From a virus (Duplodnaviria > Heunggongvirae > Uroviricota > Caudoviricetes): 5,392 nt of DNA. A program made the position numbers. The stretch is from positions 1-5,392 of IMG/VR virus record IMGVR_UViG_2671181012_000008; one strand, written 5' to 3'. Below are positions 3,001 through 5,392 of this stretch, piece after piece; the first letter of the stretch is position 1, and each line of letters opens with the position of its first letter.

Positions 3001-5392
3001 TGCCTTTGTTTCGTCATTACTGTCAGTATCACTGCTTAACTGCACCACACCTTTCTGCGTCGTGCTGGCATCCCGCTGGCTGACCGTATCCGGTTTGTTT
3101 TTTGTGCTGTAATCCACCCGCCAGTGGAAATACTGTGTGTCGCCGTAAACCGTACAGGTACAGACCGTGCCATTAATAAACCCCGTTGCACCGTATTCGC
3201 CAATGGTGACCCGGACTATGGCAGCCTCATACGTTCCCATCACCTCAATGACACAGCCACCCAGATTGAGTTTTCCCGGCCCGACATCCGTGATGACTTT
3301 ATTGAATCCCGCAGGCAGTGATGCCTTCATCATCCAGTAAGGCTGGTCAAATGCCCCTTTTTCTTTCAGCCAGGCGACAAACTCACTCGTGGTCCATTCA
3401 CCGGCCCCCGTATGAATGTCCCGCCCGTATACTCTGGCTGCTCCCACGGTGTTCAGAAACTTCACCTTATCCGGGATATCGTCACCGTTTTTCGCTTTCT
3501 CCAGGCATCCGTCCGCTTTGTCCATTGCCGCTTTCACCGCTTTCGGGGTGGCTGCCTTCGTTTCATCATCACTGTCCGTTGCGCTGCTTAACTGCACAAT
3601 TCCCTTCTGTGCCGTCGTCGCATCCGGCCCTCCCGGCTCACCTTTTTCGCCCTTCTCTCCCCGCTCACCTTTCACACCCTGAAGCCCCTGTGGTCCTGTC
3701 TCACCACGCTCACCCTTTGGCCCCCGCTCGCCGGTATCGCCTTTTGGCCCGGGAATACCCTGTGGCCCCGTGTCTCCCTTATCCCCCTTCGGTCCCCTCG
3801 CATTCTCTGCCCGTTTCTTCGCTTCCTCTGCACTCGCCGCTGACGCTTCCGCACGTTTCAGGATTTCCGCGGCCACCGCTTCCAGCTCTGCAAGGGCTTT
3901 CGGGTAATACTGTGCATCCTCCAGGTCCATCAGAAATTTATTCAGCGTTCCCGGTGCCGAATCCGCCTTCACCAGAATGTCACCCACATATGACGGCGCG
4001 TACCCTTCCGTGTTCAGCGTCACCCGGTACAACCCCGGCTCAACATCCATACTGTAACTGCCGGTTTCCCCCGGCTGACCATACGCCACCGTGGTGACAA
4101 TCACCGTCTCCGTTGTGCGGCGCGCTTTCAGCTCTATCGTGCATCCCGGTACCGGTTTTCCCGTACCATCCTTCAGCACACCCGATATTCTGACTGTCAT
4201 GGATTTCCCCCATAAAAAAAACCGCAGTACCGGTTTCCCGGCCTGCGGTAAAATTTGCGGTTTGTTGGTGTTAAAACGGTGCCATCCGGCTGACCACCCT
4301 CAGCAACCGGTCGGCGGGGGATATTCTCCCCCGCCACGGTTTCTTACTGCTTACACTGTAAGAACGCCGCAATCTCCGCGCCCGCTATCCGGAACCGGAA
4401 CTCGCACAGTGAAGTGTGGGTGATCCAGATAATGAGCACTACCGTGATACAAATCACGGTGGTTTTTAACGGTTTTTGCGACATAAACGCTTGCTCCTTT
4501 TACGGAGAGGCGCTAACCTTTCACTTGCTTAGGATGAATGGTCAGGCCTCGGGTTAAACATGAATGTTTGTCCGGGGCCTTTTCACATCCGGCCTTCAGG
4601 TGTTCCCTCCGGCCATCAGCCAAAGGCACCCGCGCATACTGTACGGTTTTTGTCTCCTTCCGGCAATCCGTATTCCGGCTGCCTGTCACGATCTCCGGGT
4701 AAAACCGGAATCTGTCGATTTCGCCACCATGAGAGTAAAGGCGTCATATCTCCACCGCACCAGCTCTCTCTTTCTCCCTTCCACATCCCCCATATTGCCA
4801 GGACCACCTTCAACTCTCATTGTCACTGTAATCCGTGTATCTCCCCCTCCTGCCACCACATCCCATACTCCTGAAACGGTGTCCCCGAGGTTGGTGTACG
4901 TGTTAACAGCATTGCCATTTCTGTCAAAACGACCTGAAAAACCCGTATCAGCAATTCTCGGTTCTGCCTTAATGACAACTCTTCCGTTAATCTCTATCGT
5001 CAGTGTTCCTGAATAGAAAAAGAAGGGAAGGAGTATCAGCTTGCGATCAAACGAAACATCATCAGCAAGAGATACCTCCGCCTTAAAGATGACATAACCC
5101 TCTCCATACTTGTGGTTCGTAATATGGAGCGTGCCATCACGAGGTTCGAAGGAATAGCCCTTGACGATATCACCGATGATTCTGTCTGCGCTAATGGTTC
5201 CTTTAACAACGCAGTTTTCTGCAATGGTCACGTTATTCAGCGTGCCCGAGTTCGCACTGATATGTCCGCTGATGTCAGCATTGCGGGCCGTCAGCCTGCC
5301 CTCCGGCGTCAGGGAGAACGTCGGGGGATTGCCGGACGAGGTGATGCTTACTGCAAACAGTCGCTTCAGGAACACATCGTTCATGAACAGCT

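Follow-up and report, generated by a model that had tools for sequence, protein, structure and literature searches.

A hok/sok-type toxin-antitoxin module predicted between the J-like and side tail fibre genes of a lambdoid prophage

Between the J-like tail-tip gene and the side tail fibre gene of the virus in IMG/VR record IMGVR_UViG_2671181012_000008 lies a small gene for a toxin of the Hok/Gef type, which is considered here together with the RNA elements predicted around it. All coordinates are positions in the 5,392-nucleotide (nt) stretch of this record that was analysed as a whole (the window), where all four neighbouring genes are on the minus strand. Between the end of the J-like open reading frame (ORF) at 4686 and the start of the fibre ORF at 4200 is the 485-bp gap (4201-4685) that an earlier note on this DNA had described. 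On the minus strand of this gap an ORF runs from an ATG at 4484 to a TAA at 4344, encodes the product MSQKPLKTTVICITVVLIIWITHTSLCEFRFRIAGAEIAAFLQCKQ and is preceded by the Shine-Dalgarno sequence AAAGGAG (4494-4500) with a 9-nt spacer to the ATG; the 46 codons, the ribosome-binding motif and the spacer had all been given correctly in that note. Its comparison of the position with that of lom in phage lambda is also right, the gene lying between J and the tail fibre gene, in the J-stf slot that lom occupies in lambda. Lom is an outer-membrane beta-barrel and not a toxin, and lom is transcribed independently in the lysogen. A tblastn search with Lom against the window gave no match, and thus no sequence relation between the two.

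The product fits the architecture of Hok/Gef proteins (45-55 residues), with an N-terminal hydrophobic stretch, VICITVVLIIWI, followed by SLCE and AEIAAF. Membership of this family, which had been proposed from a C-terminal signature that is indeed present (SLCEFRFR and AEIAAFL), is borne out by database relatives and by two profiles: Pfam HOK_GEF (PF01848) matches residues 10-44 at profile positions 8-42 of 42, scoring 42.2 bits where the cut-off is 22 (E 6.1e-11), and PHROG 251 ('MokW-like host killing', moron category) matches the full-length peptide (residues 1-46) at profile positions 2-49 of 50, scoring 75.7 bits (E 4.1e-21), both far above what chance would give. Residues C12, T14, L26, C27, E28 and E37 align with HokW of Sakai prophage 5 (Sp5), are conserved in the clade of 46-residue peptides, and match the conserved positions given in a Hok catalogue (bioRxiv 10.1101/2025.08.07.668861). 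A search of 5.8 billion proteins gave 48 relatives, hosted by Escherichia, Salmonella, Serratia and Yersinia, every named one being a Hok/Gef protein. The ORF is under purifying selection and is conserved in related prophages, with the ATG and 46 codons kept at 84 of the 91 homologous places in other loci and a median dN/dS of 0.25.

The description of the gene as unannotated was correct for the ORF track that came with the sequence and incorrect in general, given that RefSeq holds the identical protein WP_000078854.1, annotated by PGAP as 'Hok/Gef family protein' and flanked by gpJ and a 'prophage tail fiber N-terminal domain-containing protein' in a prophage that adjoins prfC. In phage 1720a-02 the region is 98.5% identical and the ORF is labelled hypothetical. 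The catalogue of Escalera-Maurer et al. (a 2025-26 preprint, bioRxiv 10.1101/2025.08.07.668861) lists 44,248 Hok homologues in 61 clusters, reports hok to be enriched in prophages, and includes in its Table S2 the cluster 79 peptide 79_1563, cloned as construct LRP163, which differs from the window peptide at 2 of 46 residues (T24S, Q46R). The preprint reports that 42 of 45 tested homologues were toxic, the non-toxic ones being 19_179, 60_1482 and 69_1540; 79_1563 is absent from these three named exceptions and is presumably toxic, as judged from the text of the preprint. Cluster 79 and WP_000078854.1 thus share with the window the same peptide, without any difference of substance, and the same place between gpJ and the fibre gene. 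Being both annotated and catalogued, the hok gene in the gap is already known and is not a discovery. The preprint itself contains no analysis of mok, Sok or mRNA structure.

Cluster 79 loci are all flanked by a J C-terminus that varies (40-100% identity) and by a fibre N-terminus that is conserved (86-100%), apart from a single one (L026) that has no fibre match. The last 232 residues of the J-like protein in the window match no Pfam family, and in most prophages with the same hok and fibre N-terminus they are only 40-54% identical; because the J C-terminus is divergent while hok and the fibre N-terminus are held in common, a recombination boundary is placed between J and hok. A 500-bp region around the gene is matched with 100% identity by two complete E. 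coli genomes and over at least 80% of its length in 119 of 5426 complete E. coli genomes, and has some homologue in 1530 of them; about 30 viral contigs, like the RefSeq genomes of 100% identity, have the same slot occupied. The clade is nearly absent from plasmids, with matches in 19 of 72,556 records and none above 80% identity.

The RNA elements predicted around the ORF are collected in Table 1. Their order was obtained by alignment with the hok/sok loci of R100 and with hokW of Sp5, and is the same as in R1/R100 hok/sok (parB): tac, ucb, GAGG, the complement of the Sok -10 together with dcb, the hok Shine-Dalgarno sequence, the coding sequence, the 3' stem-loop, fbi and the terminator. Promoters were called manually from hexamers, spacing and conservation, and the terminator was called from the fold, as the scan missed the minus-strand terminator. 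The TAnAnT box of the candidate hok promoter stands 6-7 nt ahead of an invariant GGGTGCC in all clades, in the forms TACAGT, TAAATT, TAGATT and TAGAAT. The RNA predicted to start at 4631 and end at 4214 agrees with the minus-strand transcript of roughly 400 nt ending near 4213 that had been expected from the sequence, and the 419-nt stretch 4213-4631 folds with a minimum free energy (MFE) of -183.6 kcal/mol (z = -8.1 against shuffles).

Table 1. Genes and predicted elements of the hok locus and its surroundings in the window
Feature	Position	Strand	Basis
Candidate hok -35-like hexamer TTGCCG	4661..4666	-	17 nt upstream of TACAGT; position conserved in relatives
Candidate hok -10-like hexamer TACAGT, predicted start G4631	4638..4643	-	TAnAnT conserved; start of the Rfam model
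Full-length hok mRNA, predicted 418 nt	4214..4631	-	Fold; RF01794 match on the same strand
tac-like 5' element GGGUGCCUUUGGCUGAUGGCC	4611..4631	-	Pairs with 4278-4295 in full-length RNA, with 4574-4582 after 3' shortening (predicted)
ucb-like box AAAGGCCCC	4574..4582	-	Nearly invariant in the alignment; alternative tac partner
Predicted hairpin with GAGG homologous to the R1 mok Shine-Dalgarno sequence; complement is the Sok terminator hairpin	4545..4579	-	Folds
Predicted Sok-recognition segment (target of the Sok 5' tail) with YUNR motif CUAA at 4529-4532	4527..4544	-	Alignment
dcb-like box GCGCCUC	4507..4513	-	Pairs with GAGGC (4546-4550) in the shortened fold
hok Shine-Dalgarno sequence AAAGGAG (4494-4500), predicted to pair with CUCUCC upstream	4494..4509	-	Helix 7, 85% of cells paired
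hok coding sequence, 46 codons and TAA	4344..4484	-	ORF; profile matches; identity to WP_000078854.1
AUUGCGGCGUU (codons 38-41), predicted partner of the start-codon region 4476-4484	4363..4373	-	Helix 8, 99% of cells paired
Predicted 3' stem-loop directly after the stop codon	4305..4342	-	Helices 11 and 12, five pairs changed on both sides
fbi-like element GGUCAGCCGGAUGGCACC	4278..4295	-	Pairs with tac in fold and alignment
Predicted intrinsic terminator, 12-bp hairpin and U8	4214..4249	-	Fold; 13 nt ahead of the fibre ATG at 4200
Predicted sok promoter: TTGCTC (4491-4496), 17 nt, TAACCT (4514-4519)	4491..4519	+	Conservation; R100/R1 alignment
Predicted Sok-like RNA, about 57 nt: unpaired 5' tail of about 18 nt, GC-rich hairpin 4545-4579, UUUU	4527..4583	+	Predicted ends
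J-like tail-tip protein, C-terminal part	4686..5384	-	ORF
Side tail fibre: Prophage tail fibre N-terminal, collagen and Phage_fiber_2 domains	2464..4200	-	ORF and domains
DUF4376 protein, in the position of the tail fibre assembly gene	1729..2448	-	ORF and domain
YadA-like protein	203..1354	-	ORF and domains

Support for the pairings comes from comparison of 84 related loci, of which 31 non-redundant mRNA cores were aligned. RNAalifold on these cores recovers the pairing of the 5' with the 3' end, the pairing of the start region with codons 38-41 and the 3' stem-loop, with 10 compensatory pairs. When the structure is specified beforehand, 94% of cells are paired, against 30-48% with the partners slid, a fraction inflated by the fact that the structure was derived partly from the same sequences; cells changed on both sides number 71, against 23.8 in shuffles, and greater weight attaches to those of the fbi helix and the 3' stem. 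The closed form, in which tac pairs with fbi, is predicted by MFE in all 31 relatives; columns 2-7 of the tac-like element are invariant in the alignment, columns 10-13 covary with columns 367-370, and three of the four outer tac-fbi pairs show changes on both sides. The stretch AUUGCGGCGUU is invariant at the nucleotide level, synonymous sites included. The 3' stem-loop likely protects the 3' end of the processed mRNA.

When the 3' partner is removed, the fold of 4302-4631 changes into an open form of the R1 type, in which tac pairs with AAAGGCCCC and GAGGC with GCCUC, and the same closed-to-open switch as in R1/R100 is thus predicted for the window mRNA. The tac-ucb helix has 97% of cells paired and one compensatory pair, and the pairing of dcb with GAGGC is predicted in 19 of the 31 relatives. 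Column-wise counts for the ucb/GAGG hairpin are poor (62% paired) owing to indels in the alignment, and were replaced by folding of each sequence. The leader is also a significant homologue of Rfam family RF01794 ('sok'), of a divergent subgroup, matching on the hok strand at 4473-4631 over the full model (1-157, E 1.4e-10). This family, named 'sok antitoxin', models the sense strand of the hok leader and not the antisense RNA, since the match is to the sense strand and runs from the 5' terminus of the mRNA as far as the start codon of hok, both in the window and in Sp5 (L088:22570-22744, minus strand).

On the opposite strand, the -10 hexamer of the predicted sok promoter aligns with TATCCT of R100/R1, and in every case where the scan succeeded, 24 of the 31 sequences in the alignment and 65 of the 66 unique loci, it reads TAACCT or TATCCT. 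The 9-nt hairpin that R1/R100 have between dcb and the hok Shine-Dalgarno sequence is absent from the window locus, and therefore the sok -35 overlaps the hok Shine-Dalgarno sequence. The predicted Sok hairpin has a mean energy of -25.2 kcal/mol as antisense and -14.9 kcal/mol as sense RNA, with G-U pairs becoming C-A mismatches on the other strand; its greater strength on the antisense strand points to selection on an antisense transcript. No stretch of the alignment varies more than the Sok-recognition segment (4527-4544), which has 26 versions among 66 unique loci, 25 of these versions carrying YUNR at the same place. Franch et al. reportedly found in 1999 that YUNR loops speed antisense pairing in hok/sok.

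Taken as a whole, the gap very probably holds a working type I toxin-antitoxin module of the hok/sok type, carried as a moron by a lambdoid prophage. That it is a type I module, as the earlier note had proposed, agrees with the mRNA architecture, the RF01794 match, the pairings and the predicted Sok-like RNA. RNA ends, processing, cleavage by RNase III and the instability of Sok would by homology be as in R1, in which case the module could work in the following manner. A weak constitutive promoter (4661-4638) would give a minus-strand mRNA of about 418 nt, the extreme 5' end of which would pair with the 3' element at 4278-4295 and keep the RNA closed, stable and untranslated. Slow 3' trimming to the stem-loop at 4305-4342 would remove the fbi partner, and the freed 5' end would then pair with AAAGGCCCC (4574-4582) and GAGGC with GCCUC, thus exposing a hairpin with a YUNR loop. 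A short, unstable plus-strand Sok-like RNA (about 4527-4583) would bind this hairpin and bring about cleavage of the duplex, and no toxin would be made during sok transcription; when that transcription stops, the 46-residue Hok would be made, insert in the inner membrane and collapse the membrane potential.

Several results weigh against a working module with this mode of action. The peptide scores below the cut-offs of the NCBIfam HokA equivalog NF007290 (37.9 against 89) and Hok subfamily NF007279 (37.1 against 73) and therefore belongs to a separate Hok branch, being an orthologue of neither HokA nor plasmid-type Hok. The RF01794 match, at 55.0 bits, is below the gathering threshold of 59; leaders of the 46-residue clade score 33-55 bits, against 113.5 bits for the Sp5 hokW leader, and are therefore missed by Rfam annotation at that threshold. 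Both promoters are weak, that of hok agreeing with the consensus at 8 of 12 positions over its -35 and -10, below the scan threshold, and that of sok at 6 of 12, and a promoter scan of 4150-4800 found no sigma-70-like sites, listing neither of the two. By MFE, no more than 19 of the 31 relatives are predicted to make the tac-ucb switch, and in the shortened fold 3 of 4 positions of the hok Shine-Dalgarno sequence are still paired, in a hairpin of only 3 bp. A mok frame or short conserved leader ORF was sought in all three frames and none is conserved. Finally, the role proposed below is drawn purely from hokW-sokW, which is a different hok lineage at a different place in its prophage.

The absence of mok bears directly on an alternative in which the locus is a decaying or silent relic, its ORF intact by chance or recent descent and unexpressed for want of mok. 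Pedersen and Gerdes reportedly found in 1999 that the chromosomal hok loci of E. coli K-12 are largely inactivated, which was counted in favour of such a relic. Translation of mok at least to the hok Shine-Dalgarno sequence is required for hok translation in R1, and toxicity is lost when mok has stop codons ahead of hok (PMC9841398). A defect of this kind is what the window presents: no leader ORF reaches the hok Shine-Dalgarno sequence, all of them stopping at or before -31, with a TAG at 4513-4515 that falls within AGGTTAG, the sok -10 read on the other strand, and the position of the R100 mok ATG holds no start codon. Among 66 unique relatives, 38 have no canonical-start ORF reaching the hok Shine-Dalgarno sequence and only 12 have one that starts with ATG; the same scan recovers the 70-codon mok of Sp5 hokW. 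On the other hand, the layout without mok is common to the whole 46-residue clade in four genera (Escherichia, Salmonella, Serratia and Yersinia), and purifying selection on the peptide, compensatory changes in the RNA and a conserved antisense hairpin would be unexpected of a relic, which we regard as very improbable.

Since there is no mok frame, the hok of the module is probably translated from its own Shine-Dalgarno sequence, in contrast to R1, which needs mok and whose Hok has 52 residues instead of 46. It may be, and we propose this tentatively, that the 46-residue lineage (clusters 72 and 79 of the catalogue and their relatives) forms a prophage-specific branch that has kept the R1-type RNA switch and dispensed with mok, with Hok translated directly from its own Shine-Dalgarno sequence, Sok acting without a leader-peptide block, and a recognition loop that diversifies fast. 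Several versions of this loop occur within one peptide cluster, in loci 89-100% identical. If the proposal is true, prophages residing in one cell would each have an antidote of their own through the diversifying loop. Only this recognition loop and the layout without mok may be new in this locus, and the lack of mok exposes a gap, small but real, in how textbooks describe hok regulation. Among the cluster 79 loci retrieved, Hok peptides have 93-100% identity, yet the recognition segment occurs in at least six versions, which suggests fast diversification or recombination of the antisense target. Some viral contigs (L040:1862-3207 and L042:2854-3634) contain two or three tandem hok/sok modules about 495 bp apart, each copy with a different recognition segment.

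With regard to the role of the module, prophage induction is the most likely trigger and also the least certain step. The hok gene is oriented like the late operon, with its terminator 13 nt ahead of the fibre ATG, and therefore antiterminated late transcription must cross hok and would meet the sok promoter head-on. Running from J through hok to the fibre gene, such transcription could supply an excess of sense RNA, by which Sok would be depleted on induction and Hok released to assist lysis. The analogy is to hokW-sokW of Sp5, the one prophage hok/sok studied functionally, which is likewise a prophage-borne type I system of the Hok family, toxic and Sok-repressed (Takada et al. 2021, PMC8621323); after mitomycin C, sokW RNA is lost, HokW is made and phage release is doubled (PMC8621323). 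A comparable depletion of Sok and release of Hok may occur in the present prophage, and the position of the gene within the late operon, facing the sok promoter, makes this idea easy to test. As an orthologue, hokW-sokW was rejected: HokW is 41% identical to the window Hok over 34 residues, with the C, T, LCE and E conserved, and is a 51-residue member of the HokD/HokC group, encoded at another position inside a mok frame of its own (the 70-codon ECs_1245).

The same hokW-sokW study bears on a second explanation, addiction, by which Sok would be lost first upon loss or excision of the prophage and Hok made from the stable mRNA would kill the cell, thus stabilising the prophage. On plasmids, R1 hok/sok is well established to act in this way (PMC9841398), but deletion of hokW-sokW left the growth of the Sp5 lysogen unaffected (PMC8621323), and many E. 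coli genomes hold several related copies, at up to seven places, with recognition segments that differ; addiction is considered an unlikely account of the window module. Slightly less likely again is abortive infection or exclusion, in which a superinfecting lytic phage would stop host transcription, Sok would be lost by decay and the cell would die from Hok before the incoming phage has matured. Prophage morons beside tail genes often protect the lysogen, and R1 hok/sok on a high-copy plasmid lowered the plating efficiency of T4 by 42% and its plaque size by about 85% (as cited in PMC8621323), although this effect is modest and was obtained at high copy number. Moreover, the PADLOC-DB defence protein models include no family that matches Hok at E up to 0.01, and the Hok catalogue reports no enrichment of hok near defence systems (bioRxiv 10.1101/2025.08.07.668861). 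Induction-linked release of Hok, resting on the analogy to hokW-sokW (PMC8621323), is the role preferred here.

Besides cluster 79, close known systems of equal peptide length are found in Stx phages, where a 46-residue Hok is encoded next to lom (933W/Sp5 type; 'MokW-like host killing' of phage 75/02 Stx; cluster 72_1589). These share with the window the mok-less mRNA layout and the location in the moron region of the tail genes, and their hok region is about 78% identical in DNA over the part that aligns and 69% over the whole mRNA region. They differ in being located after lom and before the homologue of ECs_1237 in short-tailed Stx phages, and in having another recognition segment; in cluster 72 the place between lom and the ECs_1237 homologue is kept in all loci but one (L071). 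Sp5 itself contains, distinct from hokW, a second hok of this kind, an intact 46-residue ORF between lom (ECs_1236) and ECs_1237 that is unannotated in the Sakai record (L088:9620-9760, corresponding to 1292619-1292759 of E. coli O157:H7 Sakai NC_002695.2), and its peptide is 65% identical in amino acids to the window Hok. Prophage-borne hok modules are common, and in the present prophage group the gap between J and the fibre gene is not empty and would contain, besides the toxin gene, at least one regulatory RNA, both of which are overlooked by ORF tracks and by Rfam at the gathering threshold.

Other candidates in and around the gap were set aside. An isrK-like Rfam match at 4215..4304 on the minus strand (17 bits against a gathering threshold of 50, E 2.4) is most likely due to chance, and the other sub-threshold Rfam matches were likewise dismissed as chance. 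Two plus-strand ORFs overlapping the gap region (4091..4423 and 4414..4557) were dismissed as being without support; the G+C-rich collagen stretches of the fibre gene also yield long spurious plus-strand ORFs. The side tail fibre has three such collagen-repeat stretches and two copies of a Phage_fiber_2 repeat of about 40 residues. Downstream of the DUF4376 gene, behind an AT-rich spacer (1355-1728, 32-37% GC), the YadA-like gene constitutes a second moron, and its 383-residue product, with matches to Pfam YadA_anchor and YadA_head, is an immunoglobulin-binding trimeric autotransporter of the Eib type (PDB 2xqh, EibD, E 7e-94).

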